Source of the DNA: Planctomycetota bacterium
GTDB lineage: Bacteria; Planctomycetota; UBA8108; UBA1146; JAJFFE01
Direction: 5' to 3'
Assembly: GCA_021776775.1 (NCBI GenBank)
Contig: JAJFFE010000145.1
Span: 30,884 to 94,883, forward strand
DNA length: 64,000 bases
Made by a program: the position numbers and the translations under genes
Shown here: positions 627 through 26,724 of the stretch, one piece after another
Layout of the letters: each line of letters begins with the position of its first letter
Position numbering within the stretch: position 1 is the stretch's first letter
The notes under the pieces: model-generated
The model's database searches: none
The model's input: the letters and a program-made list of their open reading frames with translations, nothing else
What the model was told of the DNA's origin: nothing

Positions 627-1862
627 ATGTCGAAGCCTTGTTGCCGGTTTTGCGCAGCGCCGCTTTCACACACGTTCGTCGATCTAGGCATGTCGCCGCT
701 GTCGAACAGTTACCTCGCGGAAGATCAGAACGCCGACAACGAAGCGTTTCATCCTCTCCACGTCTTTGTCTGCGAAGAGTGCATGCTCGTCCAACTCCCG
801 GAGTGGGTCAGCCCGGACGCCATCTTCGATGACTACGCCTACTTCTCGAGCTACTCGACGAGTTGGCTGGCTCACGCCAAACAGTACAGCCTCGAGGCGA
901 CGCGCAAGTACAGTATCGACGAGACTAGCTTCGTGGTCGAGATTGCCTCGAACGACGGGTACCTGCTGCGAAACTTCGTCGACAACGACGTGCCGGTTCT
1001 AGGAATCGAACCCGCCGCGAACGTCGCCAAAGTCGCCGAAGAGAAGAGCATTCCGACGCTCAACGAATTCTTCGGTCAGGAACTGGCAACCCGACTCCGG
1101 AAGCGCAACATTCGCGCGGATCTGCTCATCGGCAACAACGTCTTGGCCCACGTCCCTGACCTGAACGATTTCGTCGCGGGAATGCAGACGCTGCTCGCCC
1201 CGTCGGGGGTGATCACCATGGAGTTCCCTCACCTGCTGCGACTGATGGAAGAGAACCAGTTCGACACCATCTACCACGAGCACTACTCGTACTTCTCGCT
1301 GCTCACGGTGCGCCAAATTTTCGCGCACCACGGCTTGAAAATCTTCGATGTGCAAGAGCTGACGACGCACGGCGGGTCCATTCGGATTCACGCCTGCCAA
1401 GCGCAGAACGACCAGTGGAATGTCTCCGACGCAATCAAGCGGGTCGAACAAGAAGAACGCGACTACGGACTCGACCGCATCGAGACGTACAGCAACTTCG
1501 CCGCGCAGGTCGAGGCGACCAAGACCCGCTTGGTCGAGTTCCTCGCTCAAGCGAAGCGCGAAGGAAAGACGATCGCCGGCTACGGTGCGCCCGCCAAGGG
1601 CAACACGCTGCTCAACTACTGCGGACTGGGAACAGAAGTCGTGGACTTCACGGTGGACCGGTCTCCGCACAAGCAGGGGCGCCGCCTCCCCGGGACTCAC
1701 ATTCCGATCCGTGCCCCCGAAGAGATCGCGGCGGCCAAGCCCGACTACGTACTGATTCTTCCGTGGAATCTCAAGAGCGAGATCGTTGAGCAGATGGCTC
1801 ACGTCAGAGACTGGGGCGGCCAGTTCATCGTTCCGATTCCGGAAGTTGAGGTGGTGGCGTGA
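627..1862 (+). CDS. NDP-hexose C-methyltransferase (TylC3-like class I SAM methyltransferase with N-terminal Zn-ribbon and C-methyltransferase C-terminal domain)
   Basis: MSKPCCRFCAAPLSHTFVDLGMSPLSNSYL is a Cys-rich Zn finger followed by a methyltransferase fold. The Shine-Dalgarno sequence ggaaggacagagg precedes ATG 627. The track ORF starts earlier at 549. Confidence 0.7.
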   Translation: MSKPCCRFCAAPLSHTFVDLGMSPLSNSYLAEDQNADNEAFHPLHVFVCEECMLVQLPEWVSPDAIFDDYAYFSSYSTSWLAHAKQYSLEATRKYSIDETSFVVEIASNDGYLLRNFVDNDVPVLGIEPAANVAKVAEEKSIPTLNEFFGQELATRLRKRNIRADLLIGNNVLAHVPDLNDFVAGMQTLLAPSGVITMEFPHLLRLMEENQFDTIYHEHYSYFSLLTVRQIFAHHGLKIFDVQELTTHGGSIRIHACQAQNDQWNVSDAIKRVEQEERDYGLDRIETYSNFAAQVEATKTRLVEFLAQAKREGKTIAGYGAPAKGNTLLNYCGLGTEVVDFTVDRSPHKQGRRLPGTHIPIRAPEEIAAAKPDYVLILPWNLKSEIVEQMAHVRDWGGQFIVPIPEVEVVA

Positions 1863-2422
1863 AGTTCACCGAATCGACGATCCCAGGCGCCTACCGAGTC
1901 GACCCTGAGCCGATCGAAGACGAACGCGGTCACTTTGCGCGGATGTGGTGTCGCGACGAGCTTCGCGAACGCGGATTGGTCGGCGAGTTGGCACAAGCCA
2001 GTGTTTCGTACAACAACCGACGAGGCACGATTCGCGGCATGCATATGCAAGCTCCGCCGTCGGCAGAAGCGAAGCTCATCGCCTGCACCAAGGGATCGAT
2101 CTACGACGTGATCGTCGACTTACGCCCCGACGAGCCAACCTTTCTCCGTTGGGAAGCATTCACGATCACGGCGGGAAACCGTCGCATGGTCTACGTTCCC
2201 GAGGGGGTCGCGCACGGGTTCCAAACACTCGAACCAAACACCGAGGTGCAGTACCACATCTCCGCTCCGTACGATCCGGAGCGATCCCTCGGGTTCCGCC
2301 ATGACGACGCCGCGTTCGATATCGCTTGGCCGTACGAGGTCACGTCAATCTCCGAGCGCGATCAAAATCACCCGAACTTCTCACTCGAGCGACTCGAGAA
2401 GCAATTGGAGTACACGGCATGA
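1859..2422 (+). CDS. rmlC: dTDP-4-dehydrorhamnose 3,5-epimerase
   Basis: Cupin with GHFARMWCRDE...YVPEGVAHGF. Its GTG start overlaps the upstream stop (GTGA). Confidence 0.85.
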   Translation: MKFTESTIPGAYRVDPEPIEDERGHFARMWCRDELRERGLVGELAQASVSYNNRRGTIRGMHMQAPPSAEAKLIACTKGSIYDVIVDLRPDEPTFLRWEAFTITAGNRRMVYVPEGVAHGFQTLEPNTEVQYHISAPYDPERSLGFRHDDAAFDIAWPYEVTSISERDQNHPNFSLERLEKQLEYTA

Positions 2423-3456
2423 AGGTTCTGGTCACGGGCCACCAAGGATACATCGGAACGCGGATGGTGCCCTACCTACAGGAGCGCGGCGTCGAAGTCG
2501 TCGGCCTCGATAACGGATTCTTTGCCGATGGGCAGCTCTTCCCGGTGCACTGCGACATCGAGACCATCGACCGCGACGTTCGCGACGTCACCGTCGATGA
2601 CCTGAGGGGGTTCGACGCGGTCATCCACCTCGCGGCCCTTTCCAACGATCCGCTGGGTGACCTCGACCCCGAATGGACGTTCGATATCAACCACCGCGGG
2701 TCAGTCCATATCGCGCGCGCCGCAAGAGACGCCGGCGTCGCCCGGTTCATCTTCTCGTCGAGCTGCTCGATGTACGGCGTTGCGGCTGATTCGGGCGATC
2801 TCGATGAAAGCGCCCCGTTCAACCCGGTCACTCCCTACGCCGAGTCCAAGGTTCGCGCCGAAGCGCACATCGCCTTGCTCGCCAATGACACGTTCAGCCC
2901 GACGTTCATGCGAAACGCCACCTGCTACGGATCATCGGACCGACTCCGCGCCGACATTGTGCTCAACAACCTGACCGCGTGGGCGTGTACGACCGGCGCG
3001 GTGAAGATCATGAGCGACGGCAGTCCGTGGCGACCGCTCGTCCACGTCGAAGACTTGAACCAGGCGTTCTACTGCGTACTCACCGCCGAGCGTGAGAAGA
3101 TCCACGCGGAAGCGTTCAACATAGGTGTCAACGGTCACAACTACCAAGTACGAGACATCGCCGAAGCGGTCTACGACACCGTTCCCAACTGTGAGTTGGA
3201 GTTCGCCGGCAGTGGTGAATCCGATCCGCGCAACTACTGCGTCGACTTCACCAAGTTCGAGACGACGTTCCCCGCGTACAAGCCACAGTGGAACGTCGAA
3301 CGCGGCGCCCGAGAGTTGTACGAGGCGTACACCGAAGCCGGTCTCACCCTGGAACAGTTCCAGGGTCGCGACTTCATTCGTTTGAACCAACTGCGCTGGT
3401 TGATCGACGAAGGCGCTCTCGACGGCACGCTCCGCTGGAGCACGGTCCCGGTCTAA
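2419..3456 (+). CDS. NAD-dependent epimerase/dehydratase family protein (SDR, sugar nucleotide modifying)
   Basis: MKVLVTGHQGYIGTRMVPYL Rossmann GxxGxxG N-terminus. ATG at 2419 overlaps the rmlC stop. The track ORF 2326 is a 5' over-extension. Confidence 0.75.
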   Translation: MKVLVTGHQGYIGTRMVPYLQERGVEVVGLDNGFFADGQLFPVHCDIETIDRDVRDVTVDDLRGFDAVIHLAALSNDPLGDLDPEWTFDINHRGSVHIARAARDAGVARFIFSSSCSMYGVAADSGDLDESAPFNPVTPYAESKVRAEAHIALLANDTFSPTFMRNATCYGSSDRLRADIVLNNLTAWACTTGAVKIMSDGSPWRPLVHVEDLNQAFYCVLTAEREKIHAEAFNIGVNGHNYQVRDIAEAVYDTVPNCELEFAGSGESDPRNYCVDFTKFETTFPAYKPQWNVERGARELYEAYTEAGLTLEQFQGRDFIRLNQLRWLIDEGALDGTLRWSTVPV

Positions 3457-11282: not shown

Positions 11283-11589
11283 GCTGATCGTACACTTCTC
11301 GCACAGGGGATCGTTCGCAGCGCGTCACGTTATTTCTTCCGCTTCCGAGGCACAACAGAGAGTAGGGGGACTTCCGACGGCTGCCGGCAGATCTCGCCAG
11401 CCGTCGCCATGGTCGCGACAATGGGTCGGACTCCGGTGGCCGGACTCCAAGCAACCGCGCGCTCCCGCGTCGATCGCACTCTGAACCTTGACAGTCGGCA
11501 ACCCCGCCCCGAGACTCCGCCAGCCTGGATTCGGTGAGTGCCGCACGTGTGGCTCGATTCCTCGGGACTACCTGCGAGCGGAGAACGCG

Positions 11590-12348
11590 TTGATACCTTG
11601 GGAACTGATCGAGCAAGCCGACATACCGAAGCAATCGTCACGGGCGGGGCAAGGCACGGAGATCTCCTCCAAGTCAAAGATCTCTCTCTTTCGTCGCGGT
11701 GACGAGTATTCGATCCGCGTCGACAACTGGGAGTTGATGAACAGCCGCGCGTTCTCCAGCGAGAAGGAGATCGCGTCGGCGGCGTGCCTGCGCATCACGC
11801 AGCGACCCGACAGTGCGGACCGGCCGCAACCGATGGTGCTCATCGGGGGGCTCGGTATGGGGTTCACACTCCGGACGGCGCTCGACAACTTGCCCGCGGA
11901 GAGCACCGTCATGGTGGCGGAACTCATTCCGGAAGTTGTCGAGTGGAACAAGAAGTACCTCGGTAAGTTCGCCGGCGAACCGTTGGCGGACCCGCGGGTC
12001 GAGGTCTACCTGGGCGACGTCGCCGACCGCATTCGTTCGCACCCGGGCAGCCACGACGCCATCGTGCTCGATGTCGACAACGGCCCGCACGCGAAGCCGA
12101 CCGATAGCCAAGGCTGGCTCTACTCCCACGACGGACTCGACGCGATCCACCACGCACTACGACCCGATGGCGTCTTGACCATCTGGTCGGCCGGGCCGAC
12201 GACGGGTTTCACGCAACGCGTGAAACGTCGAGGGTTCGAAGTCGAGGAGAGCCGCTGTCGCAGCCGAGGCGACAAGGGCAACTGGCACGTCATCTGGGTC
12301 GCGCAGCGCAAAGAAAAGAAGGTTCGGAAAGAAGAGACCGAAGAGTAG
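11590..12348 (+). CDS. spermidine/spermine synthase-like methyltransferase-fold protein
   Basis: LFRRGDEYSIRVDNWELMNSR...MVLIGGLGMGFTLRTAL. The start is uncertain: TTG 11590 with a GGAG Shine-Dalgarno, or track ATG 11488. Confidence 0.5.
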   Translation: MIPWELIEQADIPKQSSRAGQGTEISSKSKISLFRRGDEYSIRVDNWELMNSRAFSSEKEIASAACLRITQRPDSADRPQPMVLIGGLGMGFTLRTALDNLPAESTVMVAELIPEVVEWNKKYLGKFAGEPLADPRVEVYLGDVADRIRSHPGSHDAIVLDVDNGPHAKPTDSQGWLYSHDGLDAIHHALRPDGVLTIWSAGPTTGFTQRVKRRGFEVEESRCRSRGDKGNWHVIWVAQRKEKKVRKEETEE

Positions 12349-12409: not shown

Positions 12410-12910
12410 CTACTCGCGAGAGTCGAGGAACTTCTTGAGGATCGCTGTGGATGAGCCCAAGGTGCAATCCAGAATCACCACCTCGATACCGAACTCTTCG
12501 CACACCGCCATCTCGACCGGCGGCAACGTGCCGTCCCAGTCCTTACCCTTGACGTAGTACGCCGGGCGTAGGCGCCGCAGAGACTCGTGGGTGCCGCGAC
12601 TGGCAATGTGCACGCCGGCGATCGCTTCCATGGCGTCGATCACCGTCGCCCGGTCGAGCTGCTCGAGCACCGGCTCACGCTTCTTGCGGCCGCGGATGTA
12701 GTCGTCGCACGCCAAGTTACAGATCACCGGCAGACCGAGCTTGGCGGCCAGGCGGAAGTACTCGACATGACCGCGGTGGATGGGGTCGAAACAGCCGTCG
12801 ACCATCGCGAACTTGGCGGGTAGATCGGCGGGAAGCGGCTCGGTTTCGGCATTCAAATCGTCGAAGATCAACGCGGAAGCTCCTCCGGGGTAAGCGAATG
12901 TTCGCCGCAT
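12410..12910 (-). CDS. cytidylyltransferase-like nucleotidyltransferase (TagD / RfaE domain II-like)
   Basis: MVDGCFDPIHRGHVEYF is the (H/T)xGH motif. Only the C-terminal 166 codons of the 510-aa track ORF are real. The remainder is antisense to the plus-strand gene. Confidence 0.7.
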   Translation of the reverse strand: MRRTFAYPGGASALIFDDLNAETEPLPADLPAKFAMVDGCFDPIHRGHVEYFRLAAKLGLPVICNLACDDYIRGRKKREPVLEQLDRATVIDAMEAIAGVHIASRGTHESLRRLRPAYYVKGKDWDGTLPPVEMAVCEEFGIEVVILDCTLGSSTAILKKFLDSRE

Positions 12911-13141
12911 TCTGGAACCCGGTCGGGGAGGTTGCAAGGCCACGGCCGCGGGCGGCGTCGAGATACACTGCCTGGGCGTCACGCCGCCACCGTGGTAGAA
13001 GACGTCGTGCTGCGCATGACTGCAGAAACACGCCTGTTGAGGAATCGAGTTGGGGTTTCGTTGCTCGGTAGATTCTTGAGAACCAAAGGGACCGCGGTCG
13101 CTCCGCACGAGCGCACGGGGCTTGTCAGCGGTGCCCGTCGC

Positions 13142-14122
13142 ATGGCGGCGCGCTGGGAATCCCTGGTTCACACTCCCCTCACCATTCGCTGTCGAGTTCG
13201 CGCCGCTCTGCGCGATTCGTCGCGACCGATCCTCGTCGGACCGTGGTGTTCCGAGGTTGGCTTCGAGTTGCTCTACTGGATTCCATTCCTGCGCAAGACA
13301 CTCGGCGACGCGGGTATCGACCCCGCCCGAGTCATCGCCGCCTCGCGAGGCGGTGCCGAGCCGTGGTACTCCGGTATTGCCGATACGTACTACGACTTGA
13401 TGGACGCCAAGTCCCACGCGGAGTACCTCTCGTACACGACAACTCGAGAAGCGCAGCAAGGCGTCAAGAAGCAGCTCGACCTCGTCGCGTGCGAAAGAGC
13501 GCTGATCAACGAGCTCTCGTCCGACTTCGAAGACCCGGTGGTTTTTCATCCATCGCTCATGTATCGACTCTTCGCCGCCGTATGGCGCGGAATGAAGCCG
13601 GTCGAATACGCCCTGGAGCGGTGCCACCACGTTCCGATGGATCGCAACCTGCCGCTGCCGGAAGGTTGCCCGTTCGGCGACGAGCCGTACGCGGCAATCA
13701 AGTTGTACCGATCCGACGCGTGGCCGCAGAACGAATCGAGCGCGGCGTTCGTACGAGACTTGCTCGCGAGTCTTGCGTCTCGCATGCCGGTGGTCGTCCT
13801 GCAAGCAGGGTTCGACATGGACGATCACCGCGATCACAGCCTGCCCGACGGGGTCCGCATCATCGACGCGTCGCCATGGATCGAACCGCGCACGAACCTT
13901 GCGGTACAGTCTGCTATCGTCGCGCACGCCAGCGAACTGCACACGACCTATGGCGGCTTTGCGTATCTCGGGGCGCTACTAGGAGTCCCGACGACCGCGT
14001 ACTACTCCAACGACGGGTTCGTGGCGGACCACCTCCAAGTGTCGAACCAGATTTTTTCGGGCCCTGGCTTCGCTGCTATTCGCGAGCGCCGCATCGTCGA
14101 TGGAGCACTGGCGTCCGAATGA
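13142..14122 (+). CDS. GT-B-like protein, paralog of the C-terminal half of the 23668..26724 protein
   Basis: ILVGPWCSEVGFELLYWIPF and TYGGFAYLGALLGVPT match VVIGPWMGEVGFEVLYWIPF and TYGGFSYLAPFYGVPS in the fused paralog. The start is uncertain (track 12932). Confidence 0.55.
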   Translation: MAARWESLVHTPLTIRCRVRAALRDSSRPILVGPWCSEVGFELLYWIPFLRKTLGDAGIDPARVIAASRGGAEPWYSGIADTYYDLMDAKSHAEYLSYTTTREAQQGVKKQLDLVACERALINELSSDFEDPVVFHPSLMYRLFAAVWRGMKPVEYALERCHHVPMDRNLPLPEGCPFGDEPYAAIKLYRSDAWPQNESSAAFVRDLLASLASRMPVVVLQAGFDMDDHRDHSLPDGVRIIDASPWIEPRTNLAVQSAIVAHASELHTTYGGFAYLGALLGVPTTAYYSNDGFVADHLQVSNQIFSGPGFAAIRERRIVDGALASE

Positions 14123-14150
14123 ACCTTCTCTCGAACGCTCGACGAGCCGC

Positions 14151-15632
14151 ATGAAACCGAAGACACCGCTACGCGTGTTGATCGTGCTTCAGTACCCGGG
14201 CTACCTACGGTACTTCGACTCCGTCATCGAAGAGCTGTCGCGCCGCGGCCACTCGGTCACGGTCTCGTTCGACAAGTTGGACAAACAGCGCGAAGGGCTG
14301 ATCGGTCTCGAGGCAATCCCGCGGGTCACCCGCATCGATACGATCTCGAATCGCCACGACGCGTTTCGGATCGTCGCGCGCGAGTTGCGCACCGTCATCG
14401 ACTACGTCCGTTACAAGCACCCCGACTTTCGAAGTTCGCCGTATCTCAGCGAACGAATGCGCGACGCGCTCCCGCGACCGCTGCGCTGGCTCGGCGGGTT
14501 GTCGACGCTGTCGCCGAAGACGGTCGATCGCACGATTCGTGGTCTTCTCTACCTGGAGAAGTGCATCCCGAGCTCTTCGCAAATTCGTGCAGCCATCGAG
14601 TCGGTCGCGCCCGACGTCGTCTTGGTCAGTCCTCTCGTCACCAAGGGATCTCCACAGGTCGACGTCGTCAAAGCGGCGCAAGCGTTGGGAGTGCCGTGCG
14701 CGTTGGGCGTCGGAAGTTGGGACCACCTGACGACGAAAGGGTTGGTGCGTATCGTTCCCGATCGCGTGTTCGTTTGGAACGAACTACAACGCGCCGAAGC
14801 GGTCAAGTATCACCAAGTCGAAGCGGGTCGCGTGAAGGTGACGGGCGCGCAAAACTTCGACAAGTGGTTCCACTGGCGGCCGGGGAGCTCGGCCGACGAA
14901 TTCCGCGCGAAGGTCGGCCTGCCCCCGGGCAAGCCGTACGTGCTCTTCGTCGGATCGACGGCGTCGATCTCCGCCCCGGACGCCGAGGTCGAGTGGGTGA
15001 CGGAGTGGCTACGTCAAATGCGCAGTCAAGACGCACCGCTCGCCAAGACGTCGGTGCTGATTCGTCCGCACCCGTACAATCTGGGTCGGTGGGACAAGGT
15101 CGACCTGTCGGAGTTCGCTAACGTCGCGGTCTATCCACGATTCCAAGCAAACCCGGTGGCGTCCGACGACCGCCAAGACTACTTCGACTCGATTCACCAC
15201 TCGGCCGCCGTCGTCGGCATCAACACGAGCGCCATGATCGAAGCGGCCATCCTCGACAAGCCGGTGCACACCATTCGCACGGAAGAGTTCGCACGCACGC
15301 AAGAAGGCACGCTGCACTTCCGCTACATGCTGCCTGAGAACGGCGGCTTCCTGAACGTCGCGGCGGACCCTGCCGAACACTTCGAGCAGCTCGCCAGCAA
15401 CCTCAAGGATCCAGAGACGAGCCGAGCGATCACGCAACGGTTTGTCCGCCACTTCCTGCGACCGCTCGGCATCCATCGAGACGCCACGCCGACCTTCGCC
15501 ACGCAGCTCGAACGGCTCGGCGCCCAGCAACCATCGCCGCGGCGCGATCGTACGATTGCCCATCCGGTCACCGCGATGTTTGCGCTCGCCGGCTTCGCGT
15601 TGAACGCACTGCGCCGACTTCGACGCGGCTAA
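14151..15632 (+). CDS. TagF-like CDP-alcohol phosphotransferase / GT-B protein, paralog of the N-terminal half of the 23668..26724 protein
   Basis: LGVGSWDHLTTKGLV, VVGINTSAMIEAAILDKPVHTIRTEEFARTQEGTLHFRY and LIRPHP match the fused paralog. The start is uncertain (track 14100). Confidence 0.6.
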   Translation: MKPKTPLRVLIVLQYPGYLRYFDSVIEELSRRGHSVTVSFDKLDKQREGLIGLEAIPRVTRIDTISNRHDAFRIVARELRTVIDYVRYKHPDFRSSPYLSERMRDALPRPLRWLGGLSTLSPKTVDRTIRGLLYLEKCIPSSSQIRAAIESVAPDVVLVSPLVTKGSPQVDVVKAAQALGVPCALGVGSWDHLTTKGLVRIVPDRVFVWNELQRAEAVKYHQVEAGRVKVTGAQNFDKWFHWRPGSSADEFRAKVGLPPGKPYVLFVGSTASISAPDAEVEWVTEWLRQMRSQDAPLAKTSVLIRPHPYNLGRWDKVDLSEFANVAVYPRFQANPVASDDRQDYFDSIHHSAAVVGINTSAMIEAAILDKPVHTIRTEEFARTQEGTLHFRYMLPENGGFLNVAADPAEHFEQLASNLKDPETSRAITQRFVRHFLRPLGIHRDATPTFATQLERLGAQQPSPRRDRTIAHPVTAMFALAGFALNALRRLRRG

Positions 15633-15762: not shown

Positions 15763-17265
15763 TCACGGACACCCCACGTACATGTCACAGTCAAAACTGT
15801 CCAACGTAGTGTCTTCCCCACAAAGCGCAATCAGCGGTAGCGGTAGCGGTGAAGCACCAGGAAAGAAGAGTGTGATCAAGATAGCGACGGGATCAGCCAG
15901 GTCGAAGGTTCCGTCGTCGTTTGCGTCGCCTGCATCCTCACACGGCAGCGCTGGGAAGCCCGGCGTGAACAAGGCAGAAATGCAGGTGATGGCGTCGCCC
16001 ACATTGAACGCGCCGTCCCCGTCGGCATCGCCACGACGAAAGAACCCGGGGATCGAAACTTCATAGTAGTACAGTGCTCCACTTTCGACGGCGCCCACGA
16101 CATCAGCATTCGGCGCGCCTCCGAGCACCTGGAGACCGTGAACCGCCACCGATGAGCCGAGATAGCCGACCCATTCTGTAAACCCAGAATCGGCTGCGAC
16201 CCATTGAGACTGCTCGACCCAATCCCCGCCTTCGAGCCGAAAATGAAAGATCGCGCCTTCGGTCGAGAGATACCAAGGCGCCCCGACGAACACGTCGTCA
16301 CCCTGAAGCGCTACACACCAACCAAACCCTATGTTCTCGGCAGTCATCGCCGAGATCTTCTGCTCTTCGATCCAGGTTCCCGCGGACAAGCGAAACAGGT
16401 AGGCGGCTCCGTACCCGAAACCCGGCGTCAATGTGGACAGCGCGCCGACCGCGATCGTGTCGCCGTCCACGGCAACTCCTCTACCAAACTCGTCGAAAGG
16501 CACTCCGTCTGAGGCGACCAACCGTGTCTCTTCAGCCCAGTCCGATCCGGAATAGCGAAACACAACCGCCGACCCAGACGACACGGTCCACAAGGACGAC
16601 ACGATGACATCGCCAGATATCGCAGTCGCATGCCCGAGTGCCGTCGCTTCTCCCGGCGTCGGAGCGGCGACAAGAATCTGCTCTTCTATCCAGTCGCCCC
16701 CATCCCAACGGAAGACGTAGGTCGACCCCTTGTTGGGAGCCATGTCGAATTGCTGCAACGCTGAAATCGCAAGTACGTTTCCGGACGCTGCCATCGACCA
16801 GCCGAACCAACCCTGGGTCGCAGCGTCACTGGCAACTAGCTTCCTCTCCTCGTACCACTGCGTGCCGTTGTAACGATACAGGTAGACCGCGCCTGCGTTG
16901 AGCGCCTCGTCGTCATCTCCGTACGCCGAAACTGCGATGAAGTCGCTACCCACGACGCACGACAAACCGAAGTAGTCCCCGCCGTCCAAGTCATCAGGAA
17001 CAAGGATCTGCGACTCTTCCCAAATTGAACCATTCCATTTGAAAACGATGGCCGCCCCGCCCGTCACATGACCATCCTGAATCGTGCTCGGAGCACCCGC
17101 CACCGCGAACTCTCCGTGCATCGCGACCGACTTGCCCATGTTCAAGAAGAGCGTCGGGTCGCTCGCTCTAATTTCTTGGACCTCCGTAATCGTCTGAGCA
17201 GCGACACTGTTCGTGAACACCACAACAAGAAAGCTGACTACCGTAGCTGTTGAAACGATACGCAT
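15763..17265 (-). CDS. secreted repeat protein (FG-GAP/beta-propeller-like repeats) with C-terminal dockerin and Cys-rich tail
   Basis: Signal peptide MRIVSTATVVSFLVVVFTNSVAAQ. Repeated GxxAYLYRxxGxxW units. The C-terminus is GDADGDGAFNVGDA...DANDDGTFDLADP...CGEDTTLDSFDCDMYVGCP. Confidence 0.7.
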   Translation of the reverse strand: MRIVSTATVVSFLVVVFTNSVAAQTITEVQEIRASDPTLFLNMGKSVAMHGEFAVAGAPSTIQDGHVTGGAAIVFKWNGSIWEESQILVPDDLDGGDYFGLSCVVGSDFIAVSAYGDDDEALNAGAVYLYRYNGTQWYEERKLVASDAATQGWFGWSMAASGNVLAISALQQFDMAPNKGSTYVFRWDGGDWIEEQILVAAPTPGEATALGHATAISGDVIVSSLWTVSSGSAVVFRYSGSDWAEETRLVASDGVPFDEFGRGVAVDGDTIAVGALSTLTPGFGYGAAYLFRLSAGTWIEEQKISAMTAENIGFGWCVALQGDDVFVGAPWYLSTEGAIFHFRLEGGDWVEQSQWVAADSGFTEWVGYLGSSVAVHGLQVLGGAPNADVVGAVESGALYYYEVSIPGFFRRGDADGDGAFNVGDAITCISALFTPGFPALPCEDAGDANDDGTFDLADPVAILITLFFPGASPLPLPLIALCGEDTTLDSFDCDMYVGCP

Positions 17266-17733
17266 GAGATTCCCGCTCTCTTCCCCACTGGCAAGCCACT
17301 CGTCGCTGCAAAGAAGACATCTTCGCGCAACACTCAGCGACGACTCTCGAGTAGTTCGACGCGTCGCCAGTCTCGGCCATGGGTTCAACATTCGCATCCA
17401 GGAGGGATCGTCTGGAGAGGAAGCGAGTGACTGGTCTCCAGTCGAGGAAACGAAAACTTCAGTGCACCGGGGCAAGGATGTTCACGAGGGACAATGAACT
17501 TGGCTCGCGATTCTCGGCCTGACTGATCACGGTGGCGGGAGAGACCTCTCAAAGTCGGCTTCTGTGGAAGTCCCGGTTGGCTCACCCTACTCTTGCGTGA
17601 TCTCGGCCCAGACCCTAACGTACACCAGGCATGTCAAGCGTTTGATCGGCCGTTGCGTTAGGACGCAACGCCTGCTGGCGGAGCGACGGTGTGCCTGGAC
17701 CTCGTCTATGGTGTTCTGGGTGGAGGAATCTTC

Positions 17734-18240
17734 ATGGGTACTGCTAACCATCGGGGAACTCGGTGTGGCGCGTCGAACTCTCTTCGAGGCGCGTTTCGCG
17801 TCATCGTTCCGATCGCTCTGGCAACGCTCGTAGGGCTCTCGTCGAGCGGGTGCGAGTCGCCGAAGCGCAAGAAGGCGGGCCCCGAGTCGATCGATGCGCT
17901 GAGTGGAGATCGCGGCAAGAGATCAAAGGCAGGCAGACCAGAGTTCGGAATAGCAGTCGAGCCTCCGACTGGAGGATCCGTCGGAGACGACGGAGTCATT
18001 CTGCTGTCTGTCTCGAGTGATTCCGATGTCCAAAGAGACATCGATTTCTCTGGCTTCTCCCCGACGAGTGTCACGGTGAGTCCCGATCTTCCGAGCGGCC
18101 TTCGAGTGGGGATGTCCGGTGGCAAAGCCCGGCTCATGGGCAAACTCACGGGCACCGTCGACTCGGCCAAGTCATACACCGTGACCGCCAAGGGTGGTGG
18201 CAAGACGGCGAAGAAGTCGATCAAACTCTCCGGGCAGTAG
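17734..18240 (+). CDS. hypothetical lipoprotein
   Basis: Lipobox LSSSGC followed by a Ser/Gly-rich secreted domain. Confidence 0.45.
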   Translation: MGTANHRGTRCGASNSLRGAFRVIVPIALATLVGLSSSGCESPKRKKAGPESIDALSGDRGKRSKAGRPEFGIAVEPPTGGSVGDDGVILLSVSSDSDVQRDIDFSGFSPTSVTVSPDLPSGLRVGMSGGKARLMGKLTGTVDSAKSYTVTAKGGGKTAKKSIKLSGQ

Positions 18241-18270
18241 CACACCGCACCAACCAACAAACGGTGCAGA

Positions 18271-18996
18271 CTACCCTTGAGGAATGGTGTTGAGTCGAAC
18301 CGGCACCACAGTGTGCCAGTCGTTGACGAGGTCGCGCATGTCGATGGTGAGATAGAGTTCATCGCCGTACTCTCTTGCGATGCTCCAATCAAAGAAGAGT
18401 GCGCCCTTCTCGACGGCTCCGGGACCCAACGCCCGCTTACTCCATTCGACGCTGATCAGGTTCTCACAGATGATGGCGTCCTTCAAATCGCGTCCCTTTT
18501 CATCTCGCCAAACGTCGTCCCATATCGCGAATCCGTAGAGTACCGGCATGAGCATGACGCTGATCGGAATCCCCAACGCGTAGATGTCCCAACGCGACGT
18601 TAGAAACTCAGATGCAACTTCGCCTACCGGCAACTGCGGAATTTCGTAGTAGTCACTGCCGTCCTTTCCGAACAGTCGGCAGTTGGCGTTCGAAGCCAAG
18701 ACTCGCGTGAGCGATCGATTTTCGATTCGCAGGTAGACGCCCAGAACTCCCTTCGCGCATAGATCGCCCAAGAAGTACTTGTTCGACAATTCGCTGTCGA
18801 GGAAGTGCCCGACCTGAATTCCGATCAGACCGTCTTCTGCGGCAAAGACGGCTTCATTCGGGAACTTGTCTGGTAACTCCGGTAGCGCGAGCCGCGACGC
18901 CTTCGGCGTCCCGCTACAACCGGCGAGAAGCGCAGCCGCTAGCACCGCCGAGACAACTAGCAGCAACGATCGGCGACCGGTGGAAACGTAGCTCAT
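18271..18996 (-). CDS. hypothetical lipoprotein
   Basis: Signal and lipobox LLAGCSG. The track ORF is over-extended at the 5' end. Confidence 0.5.
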   Translation of the reverse strand: MSYVSTGRRSLLLVVSAVLAAALLAGCSGTPKASRLALPELPDKFPNEAVFAAEDGLIGIQVGHFLDSELSNKYFLGDLCAKGVLGVYLRIENRSLTRVLASNANCRLFGKDGSDYYEIPQLPVGEVASEFLTSRWDIYALGIPISVMLMPVLYGFAIWDDVWRDEKGRDLKDAIICENLISVEWSKRALGPGAVEKGALFFDWSIAREYGDELYLTIDMRDLVNDWHTVVPVRLNTIPQG

Positions 18997-19064
18997 CGTG
19001 ACTCCATCTCGAGTTTCAACGAACGCTTCAACGCAATGAGATCTTGAATGATTGGTCCGCGAAC

Positions 19065-21218
19065 CTAGCGGGGTTGATACATCGAGCGGCGAATCCGGTA
19101 GTTGTACGATCGGGGCGCGCCGTCCACTACGGACTGGTACGCCTCGTGGGCGCGCTTCAGATCTTCTTCTCCGATATCCTGGGCTCGAGCCCACGCCACG
19201 GCCCTCGAGCCAAACTCGGCAAGCTCTTCATCGGAGTCGAGATCGAAGACTTCGCGGAACACGCTCTTGAACGATTGAGACTCGTCGCGATGCACGAGCC
19301 GCGCTTCGTACTCGGCCAACTTTGCAGAGTGTTCGCGAGACAAGTACTGATAGTAGAGCCAGACGCTTGTGTACCCCTTGAACGACTTGCCACCGTCAGA
19401 GATCTCTTCGTACTGTCGGTCGACGAGATCATCCAAGCTCAAGACGCCGTGTTCTCGAAACTGCCTCAACCATGATTCGTTGGTGGGGTTCACGAACTGA
19501 CCGAACCTGATCTGTCCGGCGAAATCGACGGGGTACTCGTGATACGTCGTGAAGCCGTCGGACTGAAACGGTGGCACATTGCCGTCGAGAAGAAGGTTGT
19601 TGACGTGATGGCCGATCTCGTGAGGAAGCGCTCCCCATAGAGTCTCCGTCGCGGGCATGGGCTTGCCGTCCTGACCGAGCTGGCCGTCCCAGAACAATAC
19701 GATTTGCTTGCGAGAAGAACCCTCGCTCATAGCGTTACTCTCGATGCCAGAGTTCTGAAGATGTTCCGGGCGACAGCCACTCCAGAAACCGCCCGAACTG
19801 CGCGCTATCCGGTGCCCACTGCGATCACACCACTCTTCGAACTTCTTCTGCGAGCGCAGCATGAGGAGGACGGCCTTCTTTTCCTTCGGCCGACTGCCCG
19901 GCAGCTCACGACTCAACCGCTCTGCGAGCTGATTTCGATGACCGTACTCGCGGATGTACGCTGCGAGAACTCTCTCCGCAGTTCGTGCAATCAGAGCCGA
20001 CTCACCGGGACCGACCTGAGACAAGACGACGAAGTGTGCGCTGTCGTAACGGCTAAACTCACCACTGCCGTAGGTGACCTTCGCTCCTTCCGCCGGCGTC
20101 ACGAGCTCTTGGCTACTGATCCCGAGAATCCTCGCCTTCTTGGCATCGACGGCGATGACACTCGACCCCGTGTTCACGCCGAGCGCTTCGATCTGCTCTT
20201 CGAACTCCTTCATGTCGACCGGTTGCAGCCCTTCGTGCTTCTTCCCCTTCGCCTCCGCCTTCTTTGCCTTCTCGTTTGCTATGGCGTTGACGAAACCGGC
20301 GACCGTCTTGGTCATTTCGATTCTCTGGACCGCACGCTTCCAGATATCTTGCGCAGCACTTTTCAGATGCTCGGTCCCCTTCGCGTGCGCCGCCGTGACG
20401 TCCTCGCCCAAAAGGCGCACGCGGTCGTCCGCGATCGCGATCGCGGCTGCGACGAGCGTCGTCTGGTCCGGGAACGTGAACCGGAGCTCCGTTCCGTCGC
20501 GAACCACTCGAGTCGCGGACTTGCCCAGAGACACAATCAGAGAGTTACAGAAGCGGGTGTAGGCGTTGTTGACCAACGAATCGACGGTATTGTCGTGCGC
20601 TGCTTCCAGACTCTCCCCGTCGATGACATCGCCCCAGAGTAGCTGGTTGTAGCGCAACGAATACGCCTCCATCTGGACGCGCATGCGACAACGGTGACCG
20701 TAGTAAGCCAAGTCCTTGTACGTGACCTTGCCGACTTTGACTTGCCCCGAGCCCAGGTGCTGAGAGCTGATGTTCAGGTGTTGCACCGCTGCCGAAATGA
20801 CAACGTCGACATCGCTGTACTGGTCGGCGATCTGTCGGAGTCGCTCGGGGCTCGGCTCGAGCAGAGCATCTTCTCCGTCCAAGACGACCACGTCTTCGTA
20901 GACCCCCGCTTCGCGAAGCGTCTGGATGAGAACGTCCTGCAGCGCGCCCGCCGCAGACTTCCCGAAGTACGCTCCGTCGCTAGTCCACGTCGGCGCGTGA
21001 AACGGTAGCGAGCGATCGTCGCGGAACGGGACGATGCCGACTTTTCCGCTGAAGATCGGGGTCGTGCCCTCCGGGCGGGCCAACTCGGCCGTCGCTCTGA
21101 GCGTAATCCGCTGCGCCGAACTGCAGCCGACGGCGGCCGCTGCCAACGCGATGATTAACGGGAACAGACGGCTGACGCTTGAATGCGAACTCAGCATGAT
21201 CATCTCCACTGCAATCAT
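19065..21218 (-). CDS. lipoprotein with C-terminal zincin-like HExxH (HEIGHHV) domain, putative metalloprotease
   Basis: Lipobox AAAAVGCSS. HEIGHHVNN motif near residue 540. Confidence 0.55.
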   Translation of the reverse strand: MIAVEMIMLSSHSSVSRLFPLIIALAAAAVGCSSAQRITLRATAELARPEGTTPIFSGKVGIVPFRDDRSLPFHAPTWTSDGAYFGKSAAGALQDVLIQTLREAGVYEDVVVLDGEDALLEPSPERLRQIADQYSDVDVVISAAVQHLNISSQHLGSGQVKVGKVTYKDLAYYGHRCRMRVQMEAYSLRYNQLLWGDVIDGESLEAAHDNTVDSLVNNAYTRFCNSLIVSLGKSATRVVRDGTELRFTFPDQTTLVAAAIAIADDRVRLLGEDVTAAHAKGTEHLKSAAQDIWKRAVQRIEMTKTVAGFVNAIANEKAKKAEAKGKKHEGLQPVDMKEFEEQIEALGVNTGSSVIAVDAKKARILGISSQELVTPAEGAKVTYGSGEFSRYDSAHFVVLSQVGPGESALIARTAERVLAAYIREYGHRNQLAERLSRELPGSRPKEKKAVLLMLRSQKKFEEWCDRSGHRIARSSGGFWSGCRPEHLQNSGIESNAMSEGSSRKQIVLFWDGQLGQDGKPMPATETLWGALPHEIGHHVNNLLLDGNVPPFQSDGFTTYHEYPVDFAGQIRFGQFVNPTNESWLRQFREHGVLSLDDLVDRQYEEISDGGKSFKGYTSVWLYYQYLSREHSAKLAEYEARLVHRDESQSFKSVFREVFDLDSDEELAEFGSRAVAWARAQDIGEEDLKRAHEAYQSVVDGAPRSYNYRIRRSMYQPR

Positions 21219-21382: not shown

Positions 21383-23443
21383 CTACGCGCGGCCGCCCTC
21401 AGTGTCGGATCGACGGATCGATTCGATCTCGCGCTCTAGTTCGGCAATGCGTTTGGCGTCGTCGGAGTTGCCGAGGACGTTTGCGCGGTGACGGCGGCGT
21501 TGAGTGACCAAGAACCTCGCGCACAACGTGGCGCGCTGCATCCACGTGAGGGCGATATCGGGTCGACGTCGAGTCAGGAGGCGCCACGCCATCGACGCCG
21601 AGTGCTGGTAGTACCACGGCACTCGCGCCAGAAGGCTGCGGATGGGTGATCGAAACAACGACCGGTGCTGGCGATCGATGCTGCGGCCGCCGGTTTCGCG
21701 ACGGAACCACAGCTCTTTCGAAACCTGCAGTAGCTCTCCCTGAAACGCCAGCTCTGCGATCAGCAAACGATCGGGTGCAATGACCGGACGGAACACGTCG
21801 GCTCGCTCGATTGCGTCGGTGCGATACAGCCCGTAGACGATACTGCCTGCGCCCCGCAACTCCCGGAAGACGTGGCGAAGACGCGTGTCGGTATCGGCCA
21901 GTCCGCGCGTGTCGAACCGGATCGGCAAACGTGGAAGCTGCACGTTCTGTTCGTCGACGAGTTGCGTCAGAGGGTAGGCGAGGACCGCGGTTCGGTGGGC
22001 GTCGAGTTCTTCGACCAGCGTACCGAGCCACTTCGGATGCCACACGTCGTGATCGCTCGCCCATGCGAAATACTCCGCCTCCGGACACTCTCGGCGAACC
22101 ACCTCGAATGCACGTTGCCAGGTGCGCACCATGGCGAGGCGAGACGGGTTGCATACCGCGACGATGCGATCGTCGCGCGCGGCGTACTCGTCGATAATGG
22201 ACGGGGTCTCGTCGGACGAGGCGTCGTCGATGAGAATCAACCGAAACTCGCGGTACTCCTGAGCGAGCAACGAGTCGAGTGCTTCGCGTAGATACTTCGC
22301 GTTGTTGTGGAGAGTCATGCCGATGCCGACACGTACAGCAGGCGGACGCGTGGCATTGTCAGGCGCATTGACGACAACCGTCTCGCGGGATCGACGAGGG
22401 TCGCCGGCGCGACCCGACGCCACCTTCGCGCGCCCGACGAGGTGATGGTACGCGCGCTTGCGCTTACCCTTGCGCACGATCGGCTTGGCCGCCGCGGTGT
22501 AGTCATCGGGAAGGATGTCGATCTCTTCGACGCGAAAGCTCTCCGCGATCAACTCACCCACATGGCTCAGCTGCGGATTGTGCGACGACTTGTCGCGATT
22601 CAAGCTGTAGAGATACGGACACTCAAGTTTAGCGGCGGCGCTGACGTAGTCGCGCACTTGGGCCGTCGTCATTTCTTGAAACGACACCATGTTGATCGCG
22701 AGGTCGAGCTTCGGCGGTCGGAACGCATCCATGGCGGTGTTGGGCAAGAAGACGAAGTCGACACCCTCCCAACCGTCGAAGAGTTCGTCGTCCGGCCGCT
22801 CCCCGTAGAACTTCATGACGGCGTCCGGGAACAGCGCACTCAAATACGTCGCCGAGATCAGGAACAACTCCGGCAGGTCGACGATGACGTACGTGGTGTT
22901 GGGAACGACGCGCTTGAACTGATACGCAAACCCGCCCCAACCGGCGCCGATCTCCCAAACAATGTTGCGGTCGTCGTTGCCGAGCAGACGTTCGAGGATG
23001 CCCGACTTCTCCAGGCCGAGCATGATCTCGGCGAACTTGAGCGTGTCGACGTTGTACAAGCCACCGTCGATGTCGTGCCCGTATCCTCCGAGTGTCTCTG
23101 GTTCCGGGTGGATCAACTGGTGCGCGCGTCGTGGCGAAACCCGGCCGGCCAGGGTGCGCAACTCCTCAAAGCGCGCGGCAAGCGAGGCGCGCCGCGGCTC
23201 TTGGTGGCTGCGATAGTCGTATACCCGAATGCCGGTGACGTGGTGGCAGTGGTGGCGAAGCTTTCGAATGACGGCGGGCGACGCTTCGGCCAAGTACTCG
23301 ATGTTTTCGAGCTCTTCCGACCAGTACTCACTCGGGTCGGCACTTCCGGTAGGATCAGAACTCTTCATCCGGGCGAAGTGCTCGCGGACTTCGAGATACC
23401 GCTGGTACACGAACGATTCGTCGGAGAACTCGAGACGGCGCAA
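21383..23443 (-). CDS. bifunctional class I SAM methyltransferase / glycosyltransferase family 2 protein
   Basis: N-terminal WEIGAGWGGFAYQF methyltransferase fold. C-terminal GT2 with LHNNAKYLREALDSLLAQEY...LILIDDASSDET. Confidence 0.75.
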   Translation of the reverse strand: MRRLEFSDESFVYQRYLEVREHFARMKSSDPTGSADPSEYWSEELENIEYLAEASPAVIRKLRHHCHHVTGIRVYDYRSHQEPRRASLAARFEELRTLAGRVSPRRAHQLIHPEPETLGGYGHDIDGGLYNVDTLKFAEIMLGLEKSGILERLLGNDDRNIVWEIGAGWGGFAYQFKRVVPNTTYVIVDLPELFLISATYLSALFPDAVMKFYGERPDDELFDGWEGVDFVFLPNTAMDAFRPPKLDLAINMVSFQEMTTAQVRDYVSAAAKLECPYLYSLNRDKSSHNPQLSHVGELIAESFRVEEIDILPDDYTAAAKPIVRKGKRKRAYHHLVGRAKVASGRAGDPRRSRETVVVNAPDNATRPPAVRVGIGMTLHNNAKYLREALDSLLAQEYREFRLILIDDASSDETPSIIDEYAARDDRIVAVCNPSRLAMVRTWQRAFEVVRRECPEAEYFAWASDHDVWHPKWLGTLVEELDAHRTAVLAYPLTQLVDEQNVQLPRLPIRFDTRGLADTDTRLRHVFRELRGAGSIVYGLYRTDAIERADVFRPVIAPDRLLIAELAFQGELLQVSKELWFRRETGGRSIDRQHRSLFRSPIRSLLARVPWYYQHSASMAWRLLTRRRPDIALTWMQRATLCARFLVTQRRRHRANVLGNSDDAKRIAELEREIESIRRSDTEGGRA

Positions 23444-23667: not shown

Positions 23668-26600
23668 ATGATCGCTCCCCAACCTCCGAACGCTGACGCC
23701 GTGTCCGCGACCCCGTCGGTTTCGACGGGCGGCGCGACCGCTCCATCGAGACTCCATCTCGCGTTTTGCATGCGGCATTCGGGCTACTTACGACTTTACG
23801 AGTCTTTCCTCAGGGAACTCGCCGCACGCGGTCACACCGTTCATCTCGTGATCCGACAGTTCGACGCACTCTACGACGAGCGCGTGCTCGGAGCGCTCGA
23901 AGAAGAACTGGTGCCACACCTGACTTGGGAAGTACTCGACGAAACCCGTCTCGAGCCGGGTCGGCTGCTGCTGCGACTGCTGCGTTGCATGCAGGACTAC
24001 CTGCGTTACTTAGCCCCGGCGTACCGAACCGCGCACTCGCTGCGCGCGCGCGCAGCAACCCGCCTCCCACGAGTCGCGCGCGCTGTTTGCAACGTCGTCG
24101 GTCGATCGCAAGCGTTGAGCTGGGGGCTGATTCGACTCCTGCGCGGCGTCGACCAATGTGTCGGCGCCCCGACCTCACTCGTCGAATGGCTCGACGCCCG
24201 TCAACCCGACGCGCTGATCATCACACCGCTCGTCGACTTCGGGGCGACTCAGTTGCCGTGGATGAAGGCAGCGCGAGTCGCCAGCACACCGACCATTCTC
24301 GCCGTCGCGAGTTGGGACAATCTGACCAACAAGGGGTTGGTCCAGCTCGAACCCGACGGCGTCCTCTTGTGGAACCGCTTTCAAGAAAAGGAAGCGCGAA
24401 CCTTCCACCGGTTGACGCGGACACGCATTGCCACGACCGGTGCGCAAGTCTTCGATCCATGGTTCGCCATGAAGCCGTCGACGACCGAAACGGAGTTCCG
24501 CCAACGGGTGGGGCTCGAGCCCGATCGCAACCACCTGCTGTACCTGTGCTCTTCGCCTTTCATCGCCCCGGACGAGGTCTCTTTCGTGAAGCGTTGGCTC
24601 GACGCCTTGAGAAACTCGGATGCTCTCGGCGCGAAGACGGTCGGCGTGTTGATTCGGCCGCACCCACAGAATGCCACGCAGTGGGACGCGTTCGATGAAA
24701 CCGAGTACCCGAACGTCGCCGTTCACCCCCGCGGCGGGGCGACCCCGATTCACACCTCGACGAGAAACGACTTCTTCGACTCGATGGCGCACGCGCAAGC
24801 GGTCATCGGCATCAATACGAGCGCTATGATCGAAGCGGGCATCCTCGACAAGCCGGTGTTCACCATTCAAGACGACGACTTCGTGGCCACGCAGGAGGGC
24901 ACGCTTCACTACCACTACCTGGTCGACGGCGGTCTGCTGACAGTCGCCAACGACCTGCCGGAGCATCTCGACCAACTTCGGGGCACCTTGATCGGGGCCG
25001 ATCCCCAAGCGGAAGCGCGTCGTTCGTTCGTCGCGGAGTTCATTCGTCCGCACGGCTGGGAAACGCCGGCCGCCGAGGTATTGACCGACAGCGTGGAATC
25101 GATGACGGCCGAGCTGCGCGCTCATCCGCGAACGCCCAGCATCGGCGAACGAGTCGCCGCGCTCCCAAGTGGCGCGTCGAAAGCGCTCGCTCGCCACCCC
25201 CGCGCCGCGCTGTTGTTGACCGCGTTGGCGTTGCCATTCCTGACGCTCGGCCGCTGGATCGCCAGTTGGGGCAACAGTCGACGAGTGCTCCATCTTCTGC
25301 GCTGCGGACATCAACGCGACGCGGCGGCGATCCCCGATCCGTTGCTGTTCGGCGATCTCGTGCGAGCGCCCGGACGCAAGGTTTCCGTGCTGCTCAATGG
25401 ATCGATTGCTGCCCGCTGCCTCGGCGTGGCCCTGACGCCGTTGTTGCTCGTCGCGTTTTTCTTGGTGATCGTCTACGGCGCGGCCGTGGCCATCATCGAT
25501 CTCCCCTTCATGCTGGGGTACCCGCTGTTTCTGCTCTGCACTCGCTACCGCTCGCAACCACGAACATTGATCCGCCTCCTGATCGTCGGTCCGACCAAAG
25601 CGCGCACCAGCGCGAGCAAGCTGGACGCGATCCGTGATCCGATTCAGCTGCTCGACGCCATGGACCAACGCTGCTACGGAACGGCGCCGATATCAGCGGT
25701 GCTCAACAAGCTGCGCGCCAGCGATCGACCGGTCGTCATCGGACCGTGGATGGGTGAAGTCGGCTTCGAAGTTCTCTACTGGATTCCGTTTGTCTCATGG
25801 CTCTTGCGCGCGGCGAAGGTCGACAGCGACCGAGTTCATATCGCTTCGCGAGGCGGAACCGCGGAGTGGTATCAGGCGATCGGCGGCCGATACGAAGACC
25901 TGCTTGGCCACCACACGGTCGAAGAGTTCCGCGCGTTTCAGGACCGGCGGGTCCGCGAGATCGGACACCAAAAGCAGTCGAAGATCACCGGGGCTGATCG
26001 CTCGGCGCTGGCCCCTGTTCTCGACGCTTGGGATGTCCAGCAGTACGAGTTGGTGCATCCATCGATCATGTACGGCGTCTTCCGCCACTTCTGGTTCGGC
26101 GAGATGCCGCTACGCGCAATCGGCTTGCTGTGCGATTTCAAACGTCTCGAACACCACCGACCGGAGTGGAGCGTCGTTTCCGACTTGCCCGAACAATACG
26201 TCGCCATGAAGTTCTACTTCTCCGAGAGCTTCCCGGACACGTCCGAAACTCGTGCGTTCGTGCGCGACGTTCTGGAGACCGTGGCTCGACACAACAAGGT
26301 CGTGCTCCTCAACACGCAGTTGGAACTCGACGAGCACAAGGAACTGAGCGACGGAATACCCGAGAGTGTCTTGGTTCTGTCGAAGGAGATGCTTCCGCAC
26401 AACAACCTCGAGGTTCAAACCCAGGTGATCGCGGGGGCCAGTGCGTTCATCGGAACGTACGGCGGGTTCTCTTACCTCGCGCCCTTCTACGGAGTTCCGA
26501 GCTTCGCGTTCCATGCCAACGAAGACGGATTCGTGCCGGAGCATGTCGACACTGCTCACCTGGCGTTTCGAACGGCAAACGAACATGCCGCTCTTGCCGC

Positions 26601-26724
26601 GAACTTCACTATGTTCAGCACGCAACAGTGGAAAATCCTAGCCAGCTTCTTCGGTAGCGCCGCCGCCGCGAGCAAAGAAGAATGGCGACGACTTCCGAAT
26701 GACGTTTCCGCTCCGAAGCCTTAG
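23668..26724 (+). CDS. 1018-aa fusion of a TagF-like phosphotransferase/GT-B domain and a second GT-B-like domain (polysaccharide biosynthesis)
   Basis: The N-half is homologous to 14151..15632. The C-half is homologous to 13142..14122. A hydrophobic linker (LLLVAFFLVIVYGAAVAII) lies between the halves. Confidence 0.7.
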   Translation: MIAPQPPNADAVSATPSVSTGGATAPSRLHLAFCMRHSGYLRLYESFLRELAARGHTVHLVIRQFDALYDERVLGALEEELVPHLTWEVLDETRLEPGRLLLRLLRCMQDYLRYLAPAYRTAHSLRARAATRLPRVARAVCNVVGRSQALSWGLIRLLRGVDQCVGAPTSLVEWLDARQPDALIITPLVDFGATQLPWMKAARVASTPTILAVASWDNLTNKGLVQLEPDGVLLWNRFQEKEARTFHRLTRTRIATTGAQVFDPWFAMKPSTTETEFRQRVGLEPDRNHLLYLCSSPFIAPDEVSFVKRWLDALRNSDALGAKTVGVLIRPHPQNATQWDAFDETEYPNVAVHPRGGATPIHTSTRNDFFDSMAHAQAVIGINTSAMIEAGILDKPVFTIQDDDFVATQEGTLHYHYLVDGGLLTVANDLPEHLDQLRGTLIGADPQAEARRSFVAEFIRPHGWETPAAEVLTDSVESMTAELRAHPRTPSIGERVAALPSGASKALARHPRAALLLTALALPFLTLGRWIASWGNSRRVLHLLRCGHQRDAAAIPDPLLFGDLVRAPGRKVSVLLNGSIAARCLGVALTPLLLVAFFLVIVYGAAVAIIDLPFMLGYPLFLLCTRYRSQPRTLIRLLIVGPTKARTSASKLDAIRDPIQLLDAMDQRCYGTAPISAVLNKLRASDRPVVIGPWMGEVGFEVLYWIPFVSWLLRAAKVDSDRVHIASRGGTAEWYQAIGGRYEDLLGHHTVEEFRAFQDRRVREIGHQKQSKITGADRSALAPVLDAWDVQQYELVHPSIMYGVFRHFWFGEMPLRAIGLLCDFKRLEHHRPEWSVVSDLPEQYVAMKFYFSESFPDTSETRAFVRDVLETVARHNKVVLLNTQLELDEHKELSDGIPESVLVLSKEMLPHNNLEVQTQVIAGASAFIGTYGGFSYLAPFYGVPSFAFHANEDGFVPEHVDTAHLAFRTANEHAALAANFTMFSTQQWKILASFFGSAAAASKEEWRRLPNDVSAPKP

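Follow-up and report, generated by a model that had tools for sequence, protein, structure and literature searches.

Among the closest described counterparts of the system considered here are the ABC-transporter-dependent, multi-module polymerases of O-antigens and capsules, such as those of Klebsiella O4/O7, which have two complete glycosyltransferase (GT) modules in one chain or encoded by neighboring genes (PMC11231755). We observed a likewise modular arrangement, comprising two adjacent genes, A and B, and a separate gene coding for a fused B-A protein, in a 64,000-nucleotide stretch of a Planctomycetota bacterium (assembly GCA_021776775.1, contig JAJFFE010000145.1, positions 30,884 to 94,883), hereinafter the window, whose own numbering is used throughout. 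We consider it likely that these genes specify the modular assembly of a surface glycan, wherein A and B are two different, self-contained transferases of the GT-B fold acting in one pathway and the B-A protein is bifunctional. The loci with A and B genes share methyltransferases, genes for nucleotide-sugar synthesis and, in some cases, ABC-2 permeases with those of the multi-module polymerases, of which the dual-module KpsC and the Neisseria W/Y capsule polymerases are further examples. Unlike the multi-module polymerases, the A and B modules lie outside all named GT families by sequence, are not accompanied by coiled-coil ruler or terminator domains, occur in uncultured soil and water bacteria, and form far larger arrays of paralogs, in which A and B are interleaved and a 20-kb stretch can have as many as 6 A and 8 B.

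Gene A (13142..14122, plus strand) codes for a protein of 326 aa and gene B (14151..15632, plus strand), which follows after a gap of 28 nt, for one of 493 aa; both starts agree with the database gene calls (P0001 and P0121, respectively). The fused gene (23668..26724, plus strand) codes for a protein of 1018 aa, in which the profile hidden Markov models (HMMs) of the two families match residues 32-503 (Bfam, E 1e-195) and 677-983 (Afam, E 2.5e-112). In BLASTP comparisons with this protein, A is colinear over its residues 23-305 with residues 682-967 (102/288 identities, 35%; E 3e-55) and B over its residues 7-484 with residues 29-507 (189/483 identities, 39%; E 3e-101), which places the B module at approximately residues 29-507 (nt 23752-25188, plus strand) and the A module at approximately residues 677-983 (nt 25696-26616, plus strand). 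A reading of this DNA made from its letters alone, hereinafter the sequence-only reading, had described A as homologous to the C-terminal half and B to the N-terminal half of the 1018-aa protein, and had recognized two paralogous sets, one split in the order A-B and one fused in the order B-A; the alignments bear this out in full. Every motif it quoted can be read in them: ILVGPWCSEVGFELLYWIPF of A pairs with VVIGPWMGEVGFEVLYWIPF of the fused protein and TYGGFAYL with TYGGFSYL, while on the side of B, SWDHLTTKGLV pairs with SWDNLTNKGLV, GINTSAMIEAAILDKPVHTI with GINTSAMIEAGILDKPVFTI, and IRPHP is shared. The fused protein also retains 26 of the 26 residues that are invariant across 32 members of the A family, and invariant polar residues of both families are conserved in all three genes of the window. 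The notion that these resemblances are due to chance or to generic motifs shared by GT-B enzymes has next to no probability, and we count it as refuted by the colinear, full-length alignments with the above E values and by the scores of 370-780 bits that the family HMMs attain on the window copies. A search of the six-frame translation of the window with these HMMs recovered exactly two A and two B copies and no additional, diverged ones.

AlphaFold models built from the family alignments (pLDDT 91 and pTM 0.91 for A; pLDDT 88 and pTM 0.89 for B) predict a complete GT-B fold with two Rossmann domains for each protein, and the models align to whole GT-B enzymes over 228 residues for A and 325 for B. 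No similarity between A and B was detectable (hhalign probability 0.2%). Hence, going by the models, A and B do not make up a single enzyme between them, and since they are complete, mutually unrelated and not found in a 1:1 ratio (see below), the 1018-aa protein is best understood as two transferase modules in tandem, as in the bifunctional glycan polymerases that likewise carry two complete transferase modules per chain. This speaks against the proposal of the sequence-only reading that the two sets are a two-subunit and a single-chain form of the same enzyme. A split GT of the Alg13/Alg14 type, in which each subunit supplies one Rossmann half, was also considered and ruled out, as both models are full two-domain GT-B structures.

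The organization of the families was studied in 77 related genome loci, with a scope of 20 kb (the counts of NeuB and CTP_transf_3 genes given further below are from 78 loci), and among the cluster representatives retrieved from the databases with the fused protein as query (5567 at the 50% identity level, E <= 1e-3). Among the best 150 of these 5567 representatives, the B-A architecture is the commonest (68, and about 15 further partial cases), followed by B alone (37) and B-B (16); BAB, BBB, ABA and AA were each seen once, and A-B chains are practically absent. The loci show the same preference in their gene order: where B precedes A, the two are fused in 43 of 53 cases and separate but adjacent in the remaining 10, and where A precedes B, none of 44 cases is fused and all 44 are separate and adjacent. 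The opposite orders of the split and fused sets are therefore a family-wide rule, and the window shows its standard behavior. A B-A fusion together with a separate A and a separate B recurs as a direct run in several loci of the Vicinamibacterales, for example L021, L041, L053, L058 and L061. The 77 loci hold 197 A and 152 B modules; 15 have A with no B within 20 kb, and some have up to four A without B or up to eight B without A.

These numbers bear on a different interpretation, in which A and B form an obligate heteromer of the GtfA/GtfB type, with one partner being catalytic and the other serving as a scaffold or in binding the acceptor, and the fusion would be the single-chain version of the complex. 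The very frequent fusion and the tight adjacency of the genes (the 28-nt gap in the window) are indeed classic signs of physical association, and components of O-antigen polymerases are known to form complexes (PMC11231755). Yet, the partners are not maintained 1:1, as is evident from the loci with A and no B, the runs of four A and the arrays made of B alone; moreover, B-B, B-B-B and A-A fusions exist, and both families keep many invariant polar residues at positions resembling an active site. We accordingly regard the obligate heteromer as quite unlikely and favor two self-contained transferases.

The two modules of the window protein are separated by a linker of about 170 aa in total, in which a Kyte-Doolittle scan identified three hydrophobic segments (residues 513-625; 25204..25542, plus strand). 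Such a linker is atypical of B-A fusions: 64 of 69 other B-A proteins are joined directly without any hydrophobic linker, and five have one. The protein P0244 (1127 aa) matches the fused protein through the linker region (query residues 29-642). The segments are a probable membrane anchor, judging from their hydrophobicity. Were an odd number of them to truly span the membrane, one module would end up on either side of it; hence, the segments may be re-entrant anchors.

As to the age of the two sets, the stand-alone B of the window shares 50-51% identity with stand-alone B genes located behind an A in other genomes, as against 39% with its own fused paralog. In neighbor-joining (NJ) trees, the stand-alone A of the window groups with stand-alone A genes of Alphaproteobacteria, whereas the fused A module falls in a clade of 65, whose first 25 listed members include 20 B-A fusions; these trees, which have no support values, imply no fewer than 10-13 switches between the split and fused states. 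Given that B is nearer to foreign stand-alone B genes and that the A modules are in different clades, the split and fused sets appear to be old paralogs belonging to separate sub-lineages, with neither having arisen lately from the other by fission or fusion.

Neither family has a name. No threshold of a Pfam or NCBIfam model is reached by A or B, sequence profile searches of the PDB with the two returned nothing relevant even at E 10, and no description of either family was found in the literature; a word-indexed search recovered more than 1119 homologs of A and more than 2462 of B, all of them named 'hypothetical'. In model comparisons, the GT-B fold of A is most similar to that of WaaC and WaaF, the heptosyltransferases of family GT9. 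The thresholds of their sequence models are not reached: PF01075 (Glyco_transf_9) does not match the window A and is matched by 2 of 32 relatives at E 0.071 or weaker, and TIGR02193 is matched by 3 of the 32 at E 0.01 or weaker, below its threshold. The identity of A to the GT9 heptosyltransferases (WaaC, WaaF, TibC) is just 11-15%, and, unlike these, A has an extra N-terminal helix and motifs of its own (GPWxxEVGFExLYWIPF, DDH and TYGG). A further difference from the GT9-dependent ADP-heptose systems is that neither GmhA nor a heptose kinase turned up in the A/B loci surveyed.

B is distinguished by an arginine-rich helical insert of about 80 aa in its N-domain, a basic C-terminal helix and the invariant motifs SWDxLTxKG and RPHP, set in a generic GT-B fold with UDP-GlcNAc 2-epimerases as its closest structural neighbors. 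The corresponding sequence model, PF02350, scores 13.4 bits on the window B (E 0.035; gathering score 30.6 bits) and matches 4 of 26 relatives at E 0.013 or weaker, and the likeness is thus one of fold only. The sole consistent sequence link of B is to NF046086, the BFO_1060 family of glycosyltransferases, which is matched by all 26 B members tested (best E 6e-17; 37-60 bits). We interpret B as a remote relative, and not a member, of that family. The match is colinear over both domains and the HP motif is shared; B is about 130 aa longer and has the Arg-rich helical insert and the basic tail that the BFO_1060 proteins do not. In Tannerella forsythia, knocking out genes of the BFO_1060 family (Tanf_01245, TFUB4_00887) removes the terminal pseudaminic or legionaminic acid (Pse/Leg) derivative, and the family shares with B a gene context of nonulosonic acid synthesis, which in the case of B is seen in related loci only and has no match in the window itself (PMC5420450). 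The structural ranking might be taken to mean that B is an epimerase or hydrolase of nucleotide sugars (of the NeuC, LegG or PseG type) that feeds a pathway for ulosonic acids and transfers nothing. This is highly improbable: the match to the BFO_1060 family (up to E 6e-17) is stronger than that to Epimerase_2 (at best E 0.013), the window has B and no NeuB, and the presence of up to eight paralogous B per locus along with B-B and B-A fusions better suits transferases that have diversified in specificity.

The sequence-only reading had instead seen in B a pattern of the Glyphos_transf (TagF/TagB) type. This found no support in sequence or in the ranking of folds: PF04464 is not among the Pfam matches of B and 26 relatives at E 0.1 to 1, TagF and TarL were not found for B in the PDB profile search at E 10, and they are not its nearest structural neighbors, the 2-epimerases being closer. 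The same applies to the comparison with the CDP-alcohol phosphotransferases TagF and TarL and the TagF-like capsule polymerases at large (PMC5974469), which have no sequence match to B and are not its best structural neighbors. B does have invariant histidines (H221, H307 within RPHP, and H389), which may or may not correspond to the catalytic and pyrophosphate-binding histidines of the TagF/TagB enzymes.

Adjacent to A lies a gene for a small nucleotidyltransferase, NT (12410..12910, minus strand; 166 aa), of the cytidylyl/adenylyl-transferase superfamily (PF01467, E 5e-9). Homologs with 43-58% identity occur in 47 of the 77 related loci; an A gene is less than 400 bp away in 17 of the 45 cases from A-centered loci and in 7 of the 9 from B-centered ones, and a B gene never comes within this distance. 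The cytidylyltransferase that had been placed immediately upstream of A hence belongs to the system, but being on the minus strand it is transcribed divergently from A and not co-directionally with it. Of its suggested TagD/RfaE-II-like character, the RfaE-II part fares better, as rfaE_dom_II is the best NCBIfam model (70.9 bits; cutoff 181.5), compared with 26 bits for TagD. These observations weigh on the model that the sequence-only reading had derived for the locus as a whole: B would be a TagF/TagB-type phosphotransferase using a CDP-alcohol, supplied by the adjacent TagD-like cytidylyltransferase, to polymerize a teichoic-acid-like poly(alditol phosphate) or capsule, with A as its priming or glycosylating partner. 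It is in line with the lack of CMP-sugar genes in the window; nonetheless, the TagF-type assignment has no sequence support and NT tracks A, not B, and we deem this model unlikely. What can be retained of the proposed CDP-alcohol-phosphate polymer or capsule is a pathway of the glycan type.

Two further observations concern NT. Its gene is the end of a longer minus-strand open reading frame (ORF) of 510 aa (12410-13942) running antisense through A, of which the last 166 codons alone match PF01467, and the database call is 153-166 aa; the 510-codon ORF is a typical shadow ORF of high-GC DNA, which could mislead annotation. In Tistlia consotensis (L002:13136-14245), NT and a methyltransferase of about 220 aa form one protein, and elsewhere the two are adjacent but separate genes (L081:3415-4469; L082:1577-2753). 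This link is a hint at methylation of the activated donor or of its precursor.

From the homology, folds, architectures and gene linkage we infer the catalysis, donors, acceptor and product of the system as follows. On the cytoplasmic side of the membrane, the A and B modules would be transferases that extend one growing glycan in successive steps, with each module adding one residue by analogy to the multi-module capsule and O-antigen polymerases. In this scheme, an acceptor that is either lipid-linked or itself a polymer would receive two successive residues, which may alternate, from a B-A chain or from an A+B pair. The A and B of the window represent an older paralogous version of this module pair, encoded as separate proteins. 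Since A is GT9-like and linked to an RfaE-II/TagD-like NT, it probably uses the nucleotide-activated product of this partner. The RPHP motif, the remote tie to BFO_1060 and the abundance of NeuB and CMP-sugar synthetases in related loci suggest that the probable donor of B has CMP as its leaving group, being either a CMP-ulosonic acid or a CDP-alcohol. Any particular donor assignment is put forward tentatively and has, in our estimate, a good deal less than an even chance of being right.

Several observations weigh against the proposal of two consecutively acting transferases or parts of it. The best structural matches of B are NDP-sugar 2-epimerases and not transferases, and NF046086 scores 37 bits on B and 17.7 bits on the fused protein against a cutoff of 200 bits. 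Neither NeuB nor CTP_transf_3 was found in the 64-kb window, and a CMP-ulosonic acid donor thus has no local support. In the related loci, these two genes adjoin both A and B, so that the context cannot tell which of the families uses the CMP-sugar. Finally, the NJ trees, on which the separation of the sub-lineages draws, were built without support values.

The wider distribution and context of the system were examined in the related loci. Relatives of A were found at 389 places in data with one genome per species, mainly in Vicinamibacterales and other Acidobacteriota, Planctomycetota, Thermoleophilia and other Actinomycetota, and Alphaproteobacteria, including Tistlia consotensis. In neighbor counts obtained by clustering all ORFs of the related loci, NeuB-type synthases were found in 47 of 78 and CTP_transf_3 CMP-sugar synthetases in 51 of 78, short-chain dehydrogenase/reductase (SDR) family epimerase/dehydratases in 33 and ABC-2 permeases in 10. 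Other neighbors code for aldehyde dehydrogenases, polysaccharide deacetylases, formyltransferases, FkbM methyltransferases, Gfo/Idh/MocA oxidoreductases, DegT aminotransferases, hexapeptide acetyltransferases, glycosyltransferases of family 2 (GT2) and polyprenyl-phosphate sugar transferases. Very abundant are Methyltransf_23 genes, which code for proteins with a Zn-ribbon and total 223 copies in 55 of 77 loci, often with 3-8 in tandem beside the A/B arrays; none is present in the window, and arrays of methyltransferases of such length are unusual. The tandem copies (about 310 aa) combine an N-terminal Zn-ribbon of four cysteines with the Methyltransf_23 domain, as in L020, L067, L077 and L036 (representative L045:8242-9168). 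The epimerase beside A was considered as a candidate ADP-heptose 6-epimerase and was not identified as such, as it stays below the cutoffs of the GalE, RmlB, LegB and HldD models. A block comprising a NeuB-type synthase, a short-chain dehydrogenase, an aldehyde dehydrogenase and CTP_transf_3 is shared by L081:12099-18981 and the Tistlia locus L002:16449-21278, and in the former extends to a transketolase and a HAD phosphatase. The NeuB of this block scores below the cutoffs of both the NeuB and PseI models, which suggests a non-standard ulosonic acid pathway.

Within the window, the fused B-A gene is divergent from a gene (21383..23443, minus strand) coding for a 686-aa fusion of a sugar O-methyltransferase (TIGR04371-like; E 8e-25, above cutoff) and a GT2 domain (PF00535, E 2e-22); homologs of this fusion, at 40-48% identity, are found in some 20 of the related A/B loci. 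As both NT and this O-methyltransferase-GT2 protein recur in related A/B loci, the parts of the window at 12.4-15.6 kb and 21.4-26.7 kb constitute one conserved system that is interrupted by unrelated genes. The intervening region (15763-21218) codes for an FG-GAP repeat protein, two predicted lipoproteins and a 717-aa protein without family assignment, which were rejected as members of the system because they have no counterparts in related loci; a spermidine-synthase-like gene (11488-12348) was likewise set aside, having no homolog there. The window thus presents a minimal version of the A/B system, with one split and one fused copy. Judging from the neighbors of its housekeeping proteins and from domains typical of planctomycetes, it derives from an uncultured, Planctomycetota-like genome. 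Scans for promoters and terminators around A and B gave nothing above the shuffled expectation.

Split and fused glycosyltransferase modules are already familiar as a theme, and GT-B is a common fold. What is new here are two large families without a name, a Pfam model or a solved relative, and the strict rule on the order of their fusion. The A/B pair is the core of an apparently undescribed type of large glycan gene cluster that is widespread in environmental phyla, and the two families are genetically coupled and placed in sugar-acid biosynthesis loci of abundant but little-studied phyla of soil and water. Beyond a few pathogens, little is known about transferases of nonulosonic acids and of acidic sugars related to them (PMC5420450, PMC7439481). 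More speculatively, A and B could be the founding members of two new GT families, which together with the Zn-ribbon methyltransferase arrays, NT and the unusual block of NeuB, SDR, aldehyde dehydrogenase and transketolase would build an undescribed, heavily methylated surface polymer containing ulosonic acids in Vicinamibacterales, Planctomycetota and their relatives, with B being a new class of nonulosonic acid transferase and B-A a co-polymerase; we regard this extended scenario as possible but doubtful. The fusion rule and the linkage of A to NT offer concrete handles for expression and assay, and should the enzymes prove active, they would establish new CAZy families as well as a new envelope polymer in Acidobacteriota and Planctomycetota.

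Some other features of the window are recorded here. Three co-directional sugar genes at 549-3456, located 9 kb upstream of A, code for an NDP-hexose C-methyltransferase (Methyltransf_13/14/23), a dTDP-4-dehydrorhamnose 3,5-epimerase-like protein and an SDR epimerase/dehydratase, and could be the source of a branched deoxysugar. About 27 kb downstream of the fused gene, at 53484-55707, there are additional sugar genes, with a galactokinase-like GHMP kinase (minus strand) encoded beside a GT4-type glycosyltransferase (Glycos_transf_1). Lastly, two sigma factors of the extracytoplasmic function (ECF) type with long C-terminal extensions are encoded at 33522-36482 (986 aa, with a CarboxypepD_reg domain) and 50196-51689 (497 aa).

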